DNA from: Dictyostelium discoideum | Taxonomy: Eukaryota | NCBI GenBank assembly: GCA_000004695.1 | Contig: CM000154.2 | Location: 4,288,001-4,352,000, forward strand | Length of the DNA: 64,000 nt | Direction: 5' to 3' | Shown: one piece after another, positions 1,718-61,692 of the stretch | Numbering within the stretch: position 1 is the first letter of the stretch | Layout: the number at the start of each line of letters is the position of its first letter | The notes under the pieces: model-generated | Told to the model about the DNA's origin: nothing | What the model saw: the letters and a program-made list of their open reading frames with translations, nothing else | Database searches by the model: none | Position numbers and translations under genes: made by a program

Positions 1718-2442
1718 AAGTTCATATATTAATTTTAAATTATATTTAATATCATCAATTATCTGGTTATCGAATTTAATGATTTGATTATTATATTCTT
1801 TTAATTTATTTTGATTATTGATATTTATATTATTTTTTAATAATAATAATGATTGTTGATATTGTTTGATTAGCTGAATTGTATCAGTACCTTTATGATA
1901 ACCAATAATATCTTCATCACCATAATCATAATCATCATAATTTTGTTGAACATTATTAATATTTTTTATGGAATTATTTAATTTATCAATCATTGAGTTA
2001 TTATTATTATTGTTATTATCATTATCGATTGAAGAGGTAATAGTTGTATTTATTAATGTATTTTCTTGGAATACTGTTTCTAATTGTTTTTCGATGTCTA
2101 ATTAAAGTATTGAGAGTATGTGATGAAGTTTTTTAAATTCATCTTTAAGTAATTTTTTATTTTCATCATTTTGTGATTGAATTTCATTGAAAATTTCATT
2201 GGAATCTTTTAATGTTTGTTTATTATTTCCAATTCTTTCAAGTAATTTTGGATAAACATCATCTTTAAAATTATTCATCATTGAAATAATGTTTGATGTT
2301 GATATTGGTTCTAATCCATGACGATGATGAGAACCATTACTGGATGCACATAAAATACAACATGGTATTAATTTACAATCTAAACATAAAAGTTCAACAT
2401 TTTTACTTGGATGAATTGAACATTTTTTATTATTATCATTAC

Positions 2443-2495
<53 letters not shown>

Positions 2496-2563
2496 TTATT
2501 ATTATTTGCTAATGACATCATAATATAAATTAAAAAGGTGTGATAATTTTTTCTATTGTTCAA
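392..2563 (-). pseudogene. Degenerate copy of the B-box/coiled-coil/FNIP-repeat gene. The B-box and coiled-coil part is 1550-2563 and the FNIP repeats are 392-1546.
   Basis: The reading frame is the same as in the intact copy at 4030-6295, but an in-frame TAA at 2099-2101 (GAA to TAA) splits the B-box ORF into 2102-2563 and 1550-1993. The 3' splice acceptor used in copy 2 (ctAG) is mutated here to ttGG. The FNIP part (stop-to-stop 392-1546) has no ATG near its N-terminus. The poly-N tract is shorter than in copy 2. Confidence 0.6.
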
Positions 2564-4029: not shown

Positions 4030-5280
4030 TTATAATTTAATAATTTCTACAGATTTATCTAATTTACAAATATCTAATGATTGATCAAAATTATATTGTA
4101 AAATAATTTTTGGAATATTTTTGGGTATTGATCCTTCAATTAGTGGTGCATTCATTTTTCCTAAATTTAATTGCTTTATTGAATTTGGAATGATTCCTGG
4201 TGTTAGTTGATGTTTGAATCCTTCACAAATACTGAGATTTGTTACAGAATTTGGTATTGAATTCACTTCTAATGAAATAGTATCACATAATTGTAAGAAT
4301 TTCACTCCATCACTAATTATACCTGGTGTTATTAATTGATCGAAACCATTATAGAAATTTAATTCAGTGACTGATTTAGGAATTGATCCAACAACTAATG
4401 GTACTTTAATATTATAGAAGAATAAGGATTTAACACTATCTGGTATAATACCTGGTGAGAGTAATTGGTTAAAACCATCATTAAACTGAATGGATTCAAC
4501 TGATTTAGGAAGTGATCCAATCTTTAATTCACTTTTAATATTATTTAAACCTAACGATTGTATACCTTCAGGTATCAAAGAAATGGTACCGATTGATAAT
4601 GGTTGATTAAATCCATTTCCTAAATTTAGATGAGCAACAGTTTTTGGAATTGATCCAATCTCTAATGAGCGTTTGATATCTCTTAAAATTAAAGATCCGA
4701 CCCTTGAGGGAATAATACCTGGTTCTAGTGATTGGGAAAATCCATCACAAACATGCAATTGAGCTACAGAATTAGGAATTGAACCAATCTTTAATGGCTT
4801 TTTAATGTCGTGTAGATATAACCATATAAAACTCGAAGGAATAATACCAGCCTCAATTGATTGATTAAATCCATCATGAAATGATAACCGCCTAACACTT
4901 GATGGTATTGATCCTTTAACTAATGGTGTTTTAATATCACATATATCTAAATATTCAATACCAAGTGGTAATACACCTGGTTCTAAACTTTCTTTAAATC
5001 CATCTAATAATATTACATCCTTTAAATTTTTATTTGATTTAAGTTTTAATAAACTACCACAATCTTCTCCAAGTGCAATTTTATAATTATAAATATCTTT
5101 TGGTAATTCACTGTCCTCTGAATATATATAATATTTTTCACTAGTACCAATTTCTATTTTTAAATTAAAATGTTAATATACTTTTATTATTTACATATAT
5201 ATACTTGTAATTAAACATACTTTTTATAAATTTATAATTATTTTCATCAATTTCAATCTTAAATTTTTCATTTAATTTAC

Positions 5281-5353
<73 letters not shown>

Positions 5354-5659
5354 ATTATTATTCTTATCATTATTATTAATAAGTTCATAAATTAGTTTTA
5401 AATTATTTTTAATACCATCAATTGTTTGATTATCGAATTTAATTATTTGATTATTATATTCTTTTAATTTATTTCGATTATTGATATTAATATTATTTTT
5501 TAATAACAATAATGATTGTTGATATTGTTTAATTAGTTGAATTGTATCAGTATCTTTATGATAACCATTAATATCTTCATCACCACAATCGTAATCATCG
5601 TAATTTTGTTGAATATTATTAATATTCTTAATTGAATTATTTAATTTATCAATCATTGA

Positions 5660-5743
<84 letters not shown>

Positions 5744-6295
5744 ATTATTATTATTATTATTATAATTATTATTACTAATATTTTTATTATAATTACTATT
5801 ATCATTATCATTATCATTATCGATTGAAGAGGTAATAGTTGCATTTATTAATGTATTTTCTTGGAATACCGTTTCTAATTGTTTTTCAATATCTAATTCA
5901 AGTATTGAGAGTATGTGGTGAAGTTTTTTAAATTCATCTTTGAGTAATTTTTTATTTTCATCATTTTGTGATTGAATTTCATTGAAAATTTCATTGGAAT
6001 CTTTTAATGTTTGTTTATTATCTCCAAATCTTTCAAGTAATTTTGGACAAATATCATCTTTAAAATTATTCATCATTGAAAGAATGTTTGATGTTGATAT
6101 TGGTTCTAATCGATGACGATGATGAGAACCATTACTTGATGTACATAAAATACAACATGGCATTAATTTACAATCTAAACATAAAAGTTTCACACTTTTA
6201 CTTGGATGGATTGAACATTTTTTATTATTATTATTATTTATTAATGACATCATAATATAAATTAAAAAGGTGTGATAATTTTTTCTATTGTTCAA
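4030..6295 (-). CDS. B-box zinc finger, coiled-coil, poly-Asn, FNIP-repeat protein of about 733 aa. Exons are 5205-6295 and 4030-5140, with an intron at 5141-5204.
   Basis: ORF 5165-6295 has a B-box-like Cys/His cluster ([35 protein letters not shown]) followed by heptad-like repeats and (AAT)n. The downstream frame 4030-5172 is open for 380 codons of FNIP-type repeats (GSIPxSVxxLxFxxxFNQ) but has no ATG. A 64-nt AT-rich intron (GTATAT...ctAG) joins the two in frame: donor phase 2 and acceptor phase 2 recreate an AAT codon. The likely start is the second ATG pair (MMSL at about 6253). Confidence 0.6.
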
Positions 6296-29911: not shown

Positions 29912-31104
29912 ATGACTGATAATATTAATAAAGAATCAACCACAACAACAACAACAATTGATCATACAACCAATTTATTAATTGATAAACATGTGGAATA
30001 TATAGTTAAATTAGGATCAAAGAAGGATTCATTTGAATATTGGGTAACAGAACATATTAGAATGAATGGAATGTATTGGGGATTATCATCATTATATTTA
30101 TTAAAATCATTAGATAAATTAGATAAAAATGAAGTTATACAATGGTTATTATCATGTCAAAAATCAAATGGTGGATTCGGTGGTAACACTTCCCATGACG
30201 ATCATTTACTTTCAACTTTATCAGCTGTTCAAATTTTAATTCAATATGATGCTTTAGATAAAATAGATATTAATTCTGTTGTAGATTGTATGTAAAAAAA
30301 AAAAAAAAAAAAAAAATAAAAATAATTTATATGTATGTGTGTATGTATGTATGTATGCATATTAATTTTATTTTTTTTAAAAAAATAGATGTTGTAAAAT
30401 TGCAAAGAGAGGATGGATCATTTGTTGGTGATCAATGGGGTGAAGTTGATACAAGATTTTCATATGCTGCAATAATGTGCCTTTCTTTATTAAAAAGTTT
30501 AGATAAAATTAATTGTGAAAAAGCTGTAGAATATATATTAAGTTGTCAAAATTTTGATGGTGGTTTTGGTTCCATTCCAGGTGCTGAATCTCATGCTGGT
30601 CAAAGTAAGTAAGATAATAAATTAATAAATAATAAATTATTAATTATTAATTATTAATTTATTAATTATTATTTAGTTTTTACATGTGTTGGTGCATTAT
30701 CAATTTTAAATGAAATTAATAAAATTGATATTGATAAATTAGGATGGTGGTTAAGTGAAAGACAATTACCAAATGGTGGATTAAATGGTAGACCAGAGAA
30801 ATCATCAGATGTTTGTTATTCATGGTGGGTATTATCAGCATTAAGTGCAATTGATAGATTACATTGGATCGATAATGATAAATTGAAAAGTTATATTTTA
30901 AAATGTCAAGATAATGAAACTGGTGGTATAGCTGATAAACCTGGTGATATTCCTGACGTTTTTCATACATTTTTTGGTATATGCGGTTTATCACTAATGG
31001 GTTATTTCAAAGATCAAATCGAATCAATTGATCCAGTTTATGCACTTGGCACTAAAACTTTACAAAAATTAGGTCTTAATTTACCTTGGAATAAAAATTT
31101 ATAA
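29912..31104 (+). CDS. Rab geranylgeranyltransferase (type II) beta subunit, about 339 aa. Exons are 29912-30287, 30389-30604 and 30677-31104.
   Basis: Prenyltransferase alpha-alpha toroid repeats ([88 protein letters not shown]) are collinear with RABGGTB. There is a GTATGT donor at 30288 with an aatAG acceptor at 30387-30388, and a GTAAGT donor at 30605 with a tttAG acceptor at 30675-30676. Both introns are phase 1. Confidence 0.85.
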
Positions 31105-31293
31105 ATAAAATATAAAATATAAAATATAAAATATAAAATATAATAATAATAATTATTCGATATATCTCTCCTTCCTTAAATTTTATTTATTATTATTATT
31201 TAGTTTTTAGTTTTTAATTAAATTAATGGGAATAATAAAAGTTGGATTCTTGAGAGGGAGCGAGAGAGAAGGGAGGGGAAACAGATGAGTAGT

Positions 31294-31461
31294 TTATCTA
31301 GCACAGAATGGGCAACAGGATATTGTTGGTGAAACTGTTAATTTTGAACCTGGTGGGCATCTTGGAATAGAGCATTGAACCTTGTCACATGGTCTGGATT
31401 GAGCCATTACTTGGGAATTAAATAATAATACTATCATTAAAACTAATAATAATTTAATCAT
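31294..31461 (-). CDS. Small secreted cysteine-rich peptide, about 55 aa: MIKLLLVLMIVLLLFNSQVMA | QSRPCDKVQCSIPRCPPGSKLTVSPTISCCPFCAR.
   Basis: ATG at 31461-31459 (minus strand), a hydrophobic signal peptide and a mature peptide of about 35 aa with 6 Cys, ending in a CCPxC motif. It is a paralogue of 31962-32132 and falls below the ORF-track length cut-off. Confidence 0.55.
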   Translation of the reverse strand: MIKLLLVLMIVLLFNSQVMAQSRPCDKVQCSIPRCPPGSKLTVSPTISCCPFCAR

Positions 31462-31961
31462 TTTTTATTCTTTTTATTATTGAATTTGTTATTGTTGATG
31501 TATAACTATTGAAATTATTTAATTGAATAATGATTTAATAAATAATACTTTTTTTTTTTATTTTTATACTAAAATAAAAAGTTTTGAAAAAAAAAAAATG
31601 TTTATAAAAGAAAACTATATTCAAAACATTCTCTTGATTTAATTTAAAAATAATAATAAAATATTAATATTAACATTAATTAATCTTTAAAAGAAATATA
31701 CATATTGGTTTTAATTTTTTTTTTTTTTTTTTTTTTTTTCCAAAATAAAAGATGTAAAGAATATAAATATTTTAAAATCAAAAAGAAAAAAAAAAAAAAT
31801 ATTTCAAAAATCCATAAATTTTTTAAAATAAAATAAACAAATTCTAATTTACAACAAACAAACAAATAAACAAATTAAAAATTTTATTATAAAAAATATT
31901 ATTTAAATTTTGAAAATATTTTTTATCTTTTAAATTTATAGATGTTTTTTAATGAATAAAA

Positions 31962-32132
31962 CTAGGCACACATCGGACAGCATGAAAAAGCTCTTGAATG
32001 AGTTATTTTTGAACCTGGAGGACATTTAGGTACATTACATTGAATTTTTGAACATTCAATATCAGCATTTACATTAAAACATAAAATTAAGAACATCATT
32101 AAAATTAATAAAAAATTAATAATTTTAATCAT
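31962..32132 (-). CDS. Small secreted cysteine-rich peptide, 56 aa: MIKIINFLLILMMFLILCFNVNA | DIECSKIQCNVPKCPPGSKITHSRAFSCCPMCA.
   Basis: Same architecture and Cys spacing as 31294-31461: C-x5-C-x3-C-PPGSK-x8-CCPxC. The two genes are 0.5 kb apart on the same strand. Confidence 0.55.
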   Translation of the reverse strand: MIKIINFLLILMMFLILCFNVNADIECSKIQCNVPKCPPGSKITHSRAFSCCPMCA

Positions 32133-33078
32133 TTTATCTTTTTTTTAATAATTTTTTATTTTTATTATTATTGTTTATTTTTTTTATTTTTTTTATTTAT
32201 TGTTAAATTTATTTTTAGTTTAAATAAGTTCCTTTTTTAATTATTTTTAAAATTTTATACAAGATTTTTTTTTTTTTTTTTTTTCATTCCAACTTTTTTA
32301 ATTTATTTTAAGATTATTCATATAAAAAGAAAAAATGATTTTTTATTTTTGTTTTTTTTTTTTTTAAAAAATAACAATAATTTATCAAAATGAAATTAAT
32401 AATTATTTATTTTTTTTTTAAAAAAAATGAAATAAATAAATAATTTTGTGTATTCTTGCAACAAAGATATCAACAATATCACTTAATTGTGTTTAATTTA
32501 TAATTAAGTTTAAAGATTAAATTAAAAAAGTTATATTTATCATTATTTTACCTATTTTTATTTTAAATTTTATTTTTTAAATTTCAATTTTAAAATTTTT
32601 ATTATTTTATTTTTTGCGATAGGGGTTTAATTTGAATAATAACTAATTATTCCTATTTTTTGCAATTGAAATTAAACATTTTATTCTAAAATTAATTAAT
32701 AAAAAAATATTTCCATTGTTTGTAAGTTTTTTATAGCCAAAAATAAAATAAAATAAATAAAAAAAAAAACTATCCAAATTTTATATATGATTAGTTTTCG
32801 ATTTACATAAAATTGTAAACCATCATTTAATTAATAAATTTTTAAATTTTATATTGCCGATAATTTAATATGTCTAATATTAATTAATTCAGTTTTTTTT
32901 TATTTTAAAAAGTAACTTTATTATTATTATTATTATTATTTTTTTTTATTATTTTTTTTTTAAAAATATACAATTATAATTAAATGTTTGGATTTTAAAA
33001 AAATTATTGAAATAATTTTTTAAAATATATACATCTATATATACACAAAAATTGAAATAAATAATGAAAGAAAAAGGA

Positions 33079-33443
33079 TTAGAGAAAATTTATTGTTTTA
33101 CCTGCTTGATTATAATGACCACCGGATGCCCAATTATCATAACCACCATCACCAAAATTAGTTGCAGTAACTTTACGACCTCTGGCGATTATATAAACAT
33201 CATAGCCAATTGTTGAAAATTTTGTATTTCTAAATTCACAATGGAGTTTAGCATATGGACCTGTGACAGCATGATTTGGATGACAAACAAAAACATTATA
33301 ACCTAATGATGAGAAATGTTTTACCACACTATTTGTAAAATCACAACGAGAACCATTTGGAATTCCTCTAATTTGATTAACAAATGTATTTACATCGATT
33401 TTTGTATTAACATGAAATGGATTCTCAATATTAATTTCTGCCA

Positions 33444-33444
<1 letters not shown>
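33079..33444 (-). CDS. 121-aa hypothetical protein, possibly of the microbial RNase fold (barnase/Sa/T1-like E...R...H spacing).
   Basis: Single-exon ATG ORF. The motif ...LHCEFRNTKF...YDVYIIARGRKV...GGYDNWASGGHYNQ has Glu70, Arg88/90 and His110 spaced as the catalytic E/R/H of guanyl-specific microbial RNases. There is no signal peptide. Confidence 0.5.
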
Positions 33445-33496
<52 letters not shown>

Positions 33497-34111
33497 AAAT
33501 ATAATAATTATTATTATCAATAAATTGGAAATGAAAAAAAAAAAAAATATTTGTTGTATTTATTTTTGTTAATTAATTTTAAAAAAATAAAAAAAAAAAA
33601 AAAAAAAATATTTAACATTGTTGACTTAAGAAATTAAAACTTAAAATAGATTCTTAATTTTTTAAGAAAAAAAAAAAAAAAAAAAAAAAATCTTTTAAAA
33701 TAAAAAAAGATGATATTTAGGGGATCGATTTATTGGAAAATAAAAAAAAAAAACACTTCTGTTTTATTAAATATAAAATTCTATTTTTATTCTCACTTTT
33801 TTTGAGTTACACTAAAAAGGATTAACAGTTTTGATTGATTATATTTGTAAAGAATAATTTTTACCATCAAAAAAAAAGAAAAAAATAAAATAAAATTAAA
33901 AAAATTTATAACAATGATTAAAACCACAAAAATATAATATGAAAAAAAAAAAATATTACTATTGGTTATTAACATTTTATTTTTTTATTTTTTATTTTTT
34001 TATTTTTTATTTTTTTTTTTATTTTTTTTTTTTTGATTGGTAAATAAGTTAAATTTTAATTTTGAGAGGGGATTAGGGGGGGGGGAAAGAGAGAATTAAA
34101 ACTAAAATAAT

Positions 34112-58811: not shown

Positions 58812-61692
<2,881 letters not shown>

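Follow-up and report, generated by a model that had tools for sequence, protein, structure and literature searches.

A tandem pair of genes for small cysteine-rich prepeptides

The stretch of DNA analysed here (64,000 nucleotides, contig CM000154.2; hereafter, the window) was assigned by exact protein look-ups to chromosome 5 of Dictyostelium discoideum AX4, and has a GC content of around 20%. This work deals with two short open reading frames (ORFs) on its minus strand, DDB_G0290585 and DDB_G0290583, both of them formed by a single exon, started by ATG and separated by a gap of exactly 500 nucleotides (nt) from stop to start (Table 1). An earlier analysis, based only on the letters of the window (the sequence-only reading), had described them as a tandem pair of unannotated genes, 0.5 kb apart on the minus strand, each encoding a secreted cysteine-rich peptide of 56 amino acids (aa). 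The length proved correct for DDB_G0290585 but not for DDB_G0290583, which encodes 55 residues, and the genes are not unannotated, as both ORFs are identical to proteins deposited for D. discoideum AX4 with the name “hypothetical protein”. They are therefore already catalogued genes, uncharacterised rather than unannotated.

The tandem arrangement of paralogues was confirmed. In a BLASTP comparison, both products showed 63% identity over a 30-aa Cys core (E = 2e-14), and when only the non-Cys residues were considered, none of 300,000 shuffles reached the observed score (z = 7.8), so that DDB_G0290583 and DDB_G0290585 are clearly paralogous. A scan of the window for the patterns CPPG, PPGSK or C..C..CP accompanied by CCxxC in the same frame detected these two ORFs only.

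Both peptides share the Cys framework C-x4-C-x4-C-PPGSK-x8-CC-P-x-C, as read directly from the sequence. The spacing C-x5-C-x3-C given previously for the first half was a miscount, whereas the remainder (CPPGSK-x8-CC-P-x-C) stands. The two prepeptides open with M-I-K, followed by a hydrophobic core of 11–15 residues and by V-x-A, and the combination of an n-region Lys, a hydrophobic core, V at position −3 and A at position −1 was found in four out of four Dictyostelium sequences (the two paralogues and their orthologues from Dictyostelium firmibasis). From these features we infer that both peptides are cleaved by signal peptidase and secreted. An AlphaFold2 model of the mature module of DDB_G0290583, built from a 14-sequence alignment, had a mean predicted local distance difference test score of 85.7 and placed a beta-hairpin at residues 20–34, corresponding to the PGSK...SCCPxC part. 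With six Cys in each peptide and both ORFs conserved (see below), the claim that these are real genes for small Cys-rich peptides, with a predicted signal-peptide-like N terminus and a mature part of 33–35 aa, was upheld.

Table 1. Position of the two peptide genes, their predicted parts and other features of the window.
Feature	Position	Strand	Description
DDB_G0290585, coding sequence	31962..32132	-	single exon; 56-aa prepeptide MIKIINFLLILMMFLILCFNVNADIECSKIQCNVPKCPPGSKITHSRAFSCCPMCA plus stop; from the ORF list, exact match to XP_635672/Q54FU5
DDB_G0290583, coding sequence	31294..31461	-	single exon; 55-aa prepeptide MIKLLLVLMIVLLFNSQVMAQSRPCDKVQCSIPRCPPGSKLTVSPTISCCPFCAR plus stop; from the ORF list, exact match to XP_635671/Q54FU6
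DDB_G0290585, predicted signal peptide (residues 1-23)	32064..32132	-	putative cleavage after V-N-A; maximum 10-residue Kyte-Doolittle value 3.46
DDB_G0290583, predicted signal peptide (residues 1-20)	31402..31461	-	putative cleavage after V-M-A; maximum 10-residue Kyte-Doolittle value 3.76
DDB_G0290585, predicted mature peptide	31965..32063	-	33 aa, six Cys, isoelectric point (pI) 8.3, charge ~+2, ~3.55 kDa
DDB_G0290583, predicted mature peptide	31297..31401	-	35 aa, six Cys, pI 9.0, charge ~+4, ~3.77 kDa; N-terminal Gln
DDB_G0290585, candidate core promoter	32249..32259	-	TATAAAA then TTTT, ~120 nt upstream of ATG; read from sequence
DDB_G0290583, candidate core promoter	31587..31606	-	TATAAA plus T12 run, ~125-145 nt upstream of ATG; read from sequence
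121-aa ORF	33079..33444	-	MAEINIENPF...GKTINFL; upstream of the pair; without Pfam family
C/T-rich tract	~31252..31289	-	CTCATCTGTTTCCCCTCCCTTCTCTCTCGCTCCCTCTC; directly 3' of the DDB_G0290583 stop
(ATATTTT)n microsatellite	~31105..31160		between convergent 3' ends
B-box zinc-finger gene	2102..2563	-	paralogue of the next
B-box zinc-finger gene	5165..6295	-	paralogue of the previous
886-aa ORF	59032..61692	+
Out-of-frame string, first copy	~60666	-	…KLSLL*R*SNILIEFGVSNTN…
Out-of-frame string, second copy	~63737	-	near-identical to the first copy

Conservation of the pair and type of selection

The locus was compared with that of a second D. discoideum strain (GCA_054859355.1, locus L001) and with that of D. 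firmibasis (locus L002). In the former, the gene order is that of AX4 and both peptide ORFs are intact, without indels and with no Cys altered; one of them accumulates 2 synonymous and 2 non-synonymous changes with respect to AX4, and the other one 2 and 4, respectively, while the intergenic DNA around them is riddled with indels. In D. firmibasis, both ORFs are also intact and keep the order and orientation of D. discoideum, and the neighbours are the same: the 121-aa gene upstream, and the genes for a prenyltransferase beta subunit and a mitochondrial carrier downstream.

Substitution rates were calculated by the Nei–Gojobori method, always between D. discoideum and D. firmibasis unless another pair is named. 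Synonymous divergence (dS) was 0.47 for DDB_G0290583 and 0.86 for DDB_G0290585, and the ratios of non-synonymous to synonymous rates (dN/dS) for the whole genes were 0.36 and 0.22, respectively. When the genes were divided into their predicted parts, the mature peptides yielded 0.25 (DDB_G0290583) and 0.06 (DDB_G0290585), and the signal peptides 0.53 and 1.2, so fast evolution is limited to the latter. For the mature part, the ratios were 0 and 0.13 between strains and 0.11–0.31 between paralogues. The values of 0.06–0.25 imply that selection on the mature peptides is purifying and not diversifying, contrary to the diversifying family envisaged in the sequence-only reading, and positive selection was rejected because the ratio of the mature part never exceeded 1 in species, strain or paralogue comparisons. 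The neighbouring 121-aa gene showed a dN/dS of 0.29, and the peptide genes therefore behave as ordinary constrained coding sequence.

Regarding the age of the pair, dS between the paralogues is saturated (1.0 to >2), and each of them is closer to its D. firmibasis orthologue (75–80% identity) than to the other paralogue (51%), from which it follows that the duplication is older than the split between D. discoideum and D. firmibasis. In a direct-repeat search, similarity between both loci was confined to the coding sequences, and outside them only low-complexity matches were shared; there is no recent segmental duplication at the pair. The sequences point to an old duplication, after which the Cys core was kept under purifying selection.

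These comparisons also bear on whether the ORFs could have arisen by chance in AT-rich intergenic DNA and encode nothing. Short ORFs with very low expression (see below) and no Pfam family match are what such an origin would produce, but the similarity between the paralogues, the dN/dS well below 1 across species in the midst of flanks full of indels, the GC content of 26–33% inside the ORFs versus ~15% in the flanks, and the presence of homologues in animals all contradict it. There is hardly any chance that this explanation is correct, and cross-species conservation effectively refutes it.

As a separate observation, the strain GCA_054859355.1 carries, opposite positions 31100..33500 of the window, a haplotype that is very divergent from that of AX4 for a single species: synonymous divergence is ~0.06 for the peptide genes, ~9% of the amino acids differ in the 121-aa gene, and indels are numerous between the genes. 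This haplotype is common to a second strain (P0004).

Gene models and flanking sequences

Automated annotations of this region do not agree on the limits of the genes. In two other D. discoideum strains, the models splice the 121-aa gene onto the DDB_G0290585 ORF (P0003 and P0005), yielding chimeras of 172–173 aa, whereas in the public annotation of D. firmibasis the model RB653_009435 (P0010, 99 aa) splices the orthologue of DDB_G0290585 onto that of DDB_G0290583. As these fused models come from three independent automated annotations, and splice sites for the fusion (GT donor, AG acceptor) are present, the peptide ORFs could be regarded as exons or as parts of the untranslated regions (UTRs) of larger transcripts instead of separate genes. 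We consider this very improbable, since the fused models contradict each other and also the AX4 annotation, in which two separate genes appear. In addition, they need introns of ~950 and ~520 nt, when the typical Dictyostelium intron has ~150 nt, and they would bury the signal peptide within the protein. Furthermore, the 121-aa gene retains its own conserved stop and is annotated separately in D. firmibasis, the D. firmibasis DNA itself contains both ORFs complete, with separate starts and stops (positions 5001..5855 of locus L002, CM069767.1), and an ATG in an AAAATG context and a stop codon are preserved for each of the two peptide ORFs in all three genomes. The mutual contradiction, the length of the introns and the buried signal peptide led us to judge the fused models as artefacts of the gene callers. 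The fusion of these genes with adjacent ones in three automated annotations illustrates how easily micro-genes are lost or mis-modelled.

Candidate core promoters can be read upstream of both ATGs (Table 1), and the TATAAA/T12 string preceding DDB_G0290583 is retained in GCA_054859355.1. However, strings of this kind abound at a genomic GC content of 15–20%, which makes them weak evidence of a promoter.

On the other side of DDB_G0290583, its stop is directly followed by a C/T-rich tract, very unusual for a genome of ~20% GC, which is kept with changes in GCA_054859355.1 and in a shorter version, TCCCTCTCTCTT, in D. firmibasis. This tract may be a 3'-UTR element of DDB_G0290583. Further on, a microsatellite separates the convergent 3' ends of this gene and of the prenyltransferase-beta gene (plus strand, ending at position 31104).

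Relatives in tarantulas and beetles

The two prepeptides were turned into a HMMER profile and searched against 1.84 billion representative proteins with a threshold of E ≤ 1e-3. Besides the peptides themselves, only three proteins were recovered: P0006 (E = 4.8e-8), a “secapin-like protein” from the tarantula Pelinobius muticus (D5J6X9/ADF28500); P0007 (E = 3.9e-5), the U9-theraphotoxin-Sfo1a_1 from the tarantula Selenotholus foelschei (A0A482ZIB0); and P0008 (E = 7.8e-4), a two-module protein from the beetle Diabrotica virgifera named “DDB_G0274171-like”; in all of this, the hydrophobicity of the signal peptide feeds part of the HMMER score, and the mature part alone yields 43–45 bits, which is borderline for 1.84 billion proteins. 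Profile searches based on a word index also recovered the D. firmibasis model, together with further Diabrotica paralogues, one of them described as “VWFC domain-containing” in UniRef. Further members with the same Cys pattern thus exist in D. firmibasis, two tarantulas and Diabrotica. When one peptide alone was the query of a word-indexed search, no homologue was matched, for lack of shared 5-mers, and scans of metagenome (JGI) and viral contigs with the family profile revealed no relatives.

Across the Cys core, the Dictyostelium peptides are 53–61% identical to those of tarantulas. In the case of DDB_G0290585 and P0006, identity reaches 61% over 31 residues (45 bits), as near as DDB_G0290585 is to its own paralogue (63%). 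When the six Cys were fixed and the other 23 aligned residues were shuffled, none of 300,000 permutations reached the observed score (z = 7.8; 6.8–7.8 across comparisons). On the other hand, all comparisons saturate at 50–60% identity, at the same ~15 positions. These alignments suggest that the similarity between Dictyostelium and arthropods probably reflects true homology, the alternative being a very strong convergence towards a constrained core.

The arrangement of a signal peptide followed by C-x4-C-x4-C-x12-15-CC-x2-C was found in the Dictyostelium peptides (alignments A3–A6). Alignments A4 and A5 show no variation at the six Cys, and the P before Cys3, the G after Cys3 and the P after CC appear in at least 90% of the sequences. 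Like the Dictyostelium peptides, those of tarantulas are prepeptides of ~60 aa composed of a signal peptide and a single 6-Cys domain, with the identical spacing C-x4-C-x4-C-x13-CC-x2-C and the common motifs IQC, P-x-CPPGS and SCCPFC. In contrast, they were obtained from the venom-gland transcriptomes of animals, have signal peptides unrelated to those of Dictyostelium, and show a slightly longer N-terminal stretch ahead of the first Cys. The tarantula peptides are known from transcripts alone, and the match transfers no mechanism.

The Diabrotica proteins (P0008, P0011–P0016) also bear a signal peptide and the 6-Cys module (GIQC..P.CPPGS...CCPxC), 53% identical to DDB_G0290585, but they have two modules in tandem (91–98 aa), with a loop 1–2 residues longer or shorter, and are nearer to the Pfam VWC family (up to 23.2 bits, E = 8.4e-5). 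The DDB_G0274171 that NCBI places in their names is a Dictyostelium gene different from those of this pair, with a putative kinship to the 6-Cys family. It corresponds to stcC, an insertional suppressor of the developmental defect of tgrC1- in Dictyostelium (PMC4404348). If stcC carries the 6-Cys module, the family would gain a genetic link to a pathway of development and allorecognition.

Comparison with named domain families

The CCPxC end of the peptides had been likened to the C-terminal motif of VWC and single-VWC domains. The resemblance of the tail was supported, as VWC was the commonest Pfam match, found in 6 of 13 full proteins and in 6 of 14 isolated modules; membership was not, with all the scores below threshold and the N-terminal half of the domain absent. 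Matches always corresponded to the C-terminal part of the profile, from position ~19–30 to 57 of 57, and stayed under the gathering score of PF00093 (27.6 bits): 16.6 bits (E = 0.01) for DDB_G0290585, 12.5 for its D. firmibasis orthologue and 23.2 for the beetle protein P0014, while the Pfam scan gave no VWC match for DDB_G0290583. The peptides share with the C-terminal half of VWC/chordin-like domains the three spaced Cys, the CP and the hairpin ending in CCPxC, and the C-terminal motif C-x4-C-x4-CP-x12-CC-P-x-C is invariant in 14 of 14 aligned domains. In contrast, VWC domains have ten Cys (eight in single-VWC) versus six here, and their N-terminal C-x2-C-x-C subdomain, with four Cys, is missing from the peptides, the mature part of which begins 2–4 residues before Cys1.

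Nothing reached significance in the structural comparison, the best Foldseek match in the PDB being the C4 domain of VWF, a VWC domain (41% identity over 29 columns, E = 5.4). Sequence searches of the PDB with two profiles yielded chance matches only (complement CCP, p300 TAZ2, RNF168 RING and a collagen IV “PQCPPGTK”). In summary, the appearance is that of a C-terminal VWC subdomain standing on its own, yet the peptides are not demonstrable VWC members. Full VWC membership was rejected on account of the scores and of the missing N-terminal half, and membership in the single-VWC (SVWC) peptides of arthropods, which consist of a single domain with eight Cys, was rejected because there are only six.

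Two other families produced weaker resemblances. Secapin (PF17521), from bee venom, matched weakly in three modules through the local string PRCPPGSK or CPPGSK, where a disulfide-closed hairpin begins, with Pfam E values of 0.015–0.23 over 13–14 residues. The PRCPPGSK of DDB_G0290583 is identical to that of bee secapin. The gathering score of 25.9 bits was not reached by DDB_G0290585 (11.9 bits, E = 0.23) or by the tarantula protein P0006 (13.4 bits, E = 0.081). Moreover, secapin has ~25 residues, one disulfide and a longer precursor, whereas three disulfides are expected here, and the match covers the loop only. Membership was rejected on these grounds, and the resemblance explains the name given to the tarantula peptide, nothing more. 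Finally, the mature part of DDB_G0290583 aligns with positions 3–36 of 55 of the N-terminal domain of IGFBP (PF00219), including the CC-x2-CA ending (E = 0.0035–0.017). This match appeared only in DDB_G0290583 and its orthologue (1–2 of 14 family members), with 16.2–18.4 bits against a cut-off of 28, and IGFBP contains 12 Cys, as well as a GCGCC motif absent from the Dictyostelium peptides, so this membership was rejected as well.

Phyletic pattern and origin of the family

By present evidence, the 6-Cys family is common to the D. discoideum clade and to soil arthropods and absent elsewhere; relatives were sought at the protein level in eukaryotes, and the patchy distribution may be an artefact of annotation. 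Such a pattern could have been caused either by an inter-kingdom horizontal transfer of a gene for a secreted peptide or by the persistence of an extremely constrained ancient “half-VWC” module, a proposal that, taken as a whole, we regard as unlikely.

Considered by itself, the horizontal transfer of an arthropod peptide gene into the D. discoideum lineage, or in the reverse direction, instead of descent from an ancient eukaryotic module, appears improbable. It would account for the presence of the family in two close Dictyostelium species, two tarantulas and two Diabrotica species and in nothing else among the proteins searched, as well as for the similarity of DDB_G0290585 to the tarantula peptide, equal to that to its paralogue. 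Both genes are intronless, and all the carriers live in the soil, which would also fit. However, short peptides often remain unannotated, and thus their absence from proteomes is weak evidence; a plateau at ~50–60% identity is expected of a small constrained core after any long time; and the motif is a general pattern of VWC tails, widespread in animals. Furthermore, codon usage and GC content (26–33%) are fully Dictyostelium-like, and the dS between the paralogues is saturated.

Expression of the genes

DDB_G0290583 is included among the conservative cell-type-specific genes of Kin et al. 2018 (PMC6198379, supplementary file 5), with values, in transcripts per million (TPM), of 1.9 in cup, 0 in spore, 6.4 in stalk and 0 in vegetative cells. 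In the Parikh time course given in the same source, the values from 0 to 24 h are 0, 2.3, 0, 0.5, 2.1, 1.9 and 3.5, and those of prespore and prestalk cells are 6.7 and 0, respectively. This gene is transcribed at a low level, during development only, with a bias to the stalk, and is silent in feeding amoebae. Absence of transcription from both loci would have undermined the sequence-only reading; the low-level RNA-seq signal answers this for DDB_G0290583, with nothing found for DDB_G0290585. A role in bacterial feeding is not favoured by an expression of 0 in vegetative cells, and the peptides are probably not feeding-stage effectors.

Neither gene identifier was mentioned in the main texts across the literature searched, nor were they found in the supplements searched of Lamrabet 2020, Rosengarten 2015 and Glöckner 2016. 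In a similar way, exact-protein look-up of both peptides in assembled contigs, including the Logan read assemblies, returned no record and no transcript evidence.

A putative extracellular role in late development

The reading that we favour, with some reservation, is that the locus encodes a conserved pair of secreted mini-proteins with three disulfides, which act outside the cell in late development and derive from two independent, intronless genes duplicated long ago. Each gene would give rise to a prepeptide of ~55 aa, the N-terminal 20–23 residues of which would direct it into the endoplasmic reticulum and be cut off after V-x-A. The resulting basic peptide of 33–35 residues would fold round three disulfides into a small beta-hairpin module, and its shape (C-x4-C-x4-CPPGSK...SCCPxC) would resemble the C-terminal subdomain of the Cys-rich repeats of VWC/chordin type. 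By analogy with subdomain 2 of VWC, the likely pairing of the Cys is 1-4, 2-5 and 3-6; this prediction, if the analogy holds, comes from the fact that the two Cys normally bonded to the missing VWC subdomain would pair together. The peptide would then be secreted and, during culmination, may serve as an extracellular ligand for binding or signalling, or be one of the components linked to the matrix or the stalk tube.

Several points weigh against this proposal. Secretion, cleavage and disulfides are all predicted from the sequence, every match to a named domain family falls below the curated thresholds of Pfam, and the similarity data point to no specific binding partner. To our knowledge, the known ligands of VWC domains (BMP/TGF-beta, integrins) are not known in Dictyostelium, which lacks the BMP/TGF-beta molecules bound by these domains in animals. 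The dN/dS values are based on just 8–21 substitutions per class, although all of them go in the same direction. As for expression, DDB_G0290583 does not exceed 7 TPM, a very low level, and the assignment of its row to the “Stalk” sheet was deduced from the values and from the position in the file, while no expression record was found for DDB_G0290585 in the literature and transcriptome supplements, including PMC6198379.

The peptides could alternatively be host-defence or toxin-like effectors, antimicrobial or directed against predators or competitors, secreted either to shield the fruiting body or to target bacteria, nematodes or arthropods. In favour of this, the mature peptides have six Cys and a basic character (pI 8.3–9.0, charge +2 to +4), their nearest relatives are the venom-gland transcripts of tarantulas named secapin-like and U9-theraphotoxin, and expression in the dead-end stalk could serve the protection of the fruiting body. 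The local PRCPPGSK match can be added to this, given that secapin has antimicrobial and anti-protease activity according to a paper cited in PMC11335206. Nevertheless, that match is sub-threshold and 13–14 residues long, and the tarantula relatives, transcripts only, have no demonstrated toxicity. DDB_G0290583 has zero expression in feeding amoebae, both genes are absent from the supplements searched of the bacterial-response study, the family comprises only two copies, and there is no sign of the positive or diversifying selection that families of effectors and toxins usually show. A defensive function is, in our opinion, rather unlikely, and the extracellular role in culmination described above is preferred.

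Other features of the window

Away from the pair, two B-box zinc-finger paralogues lie ~3.8 kb apart on the minus strand, with near-identical Cys/His motifs (Table 1). Towards the other end of the window, two near-identical out-of-frame strings were found ~3 kb apart, a sign of a possible direct duplication that would include the 886-aa ORF and its downstream sequence. No tRNA genes were found within the window.

Implications for Dictyostelium and for the family

Repeats of VWC/chordin type are regarded as signalling modules of animals, and a tail-only version expressed by an amoeba in development would represent a minimal scaffold. The question of what such a hairpin binds could be addressed in Dictyostelium, a tractable organism, and the orphan peptides of tarantulas and beetles would gain a genetically accessible homologue. 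Should the function prove to be that of an ordinary matrix or defence peptide, the pair would add only modestly to the Dictyostelium secretome. Of all these aspects, the phyletic pattern is the one that most deserves further work. If the ancient “half-VWC” were true, the tail of VWC would predate animals and would have a conserved extracellular target.

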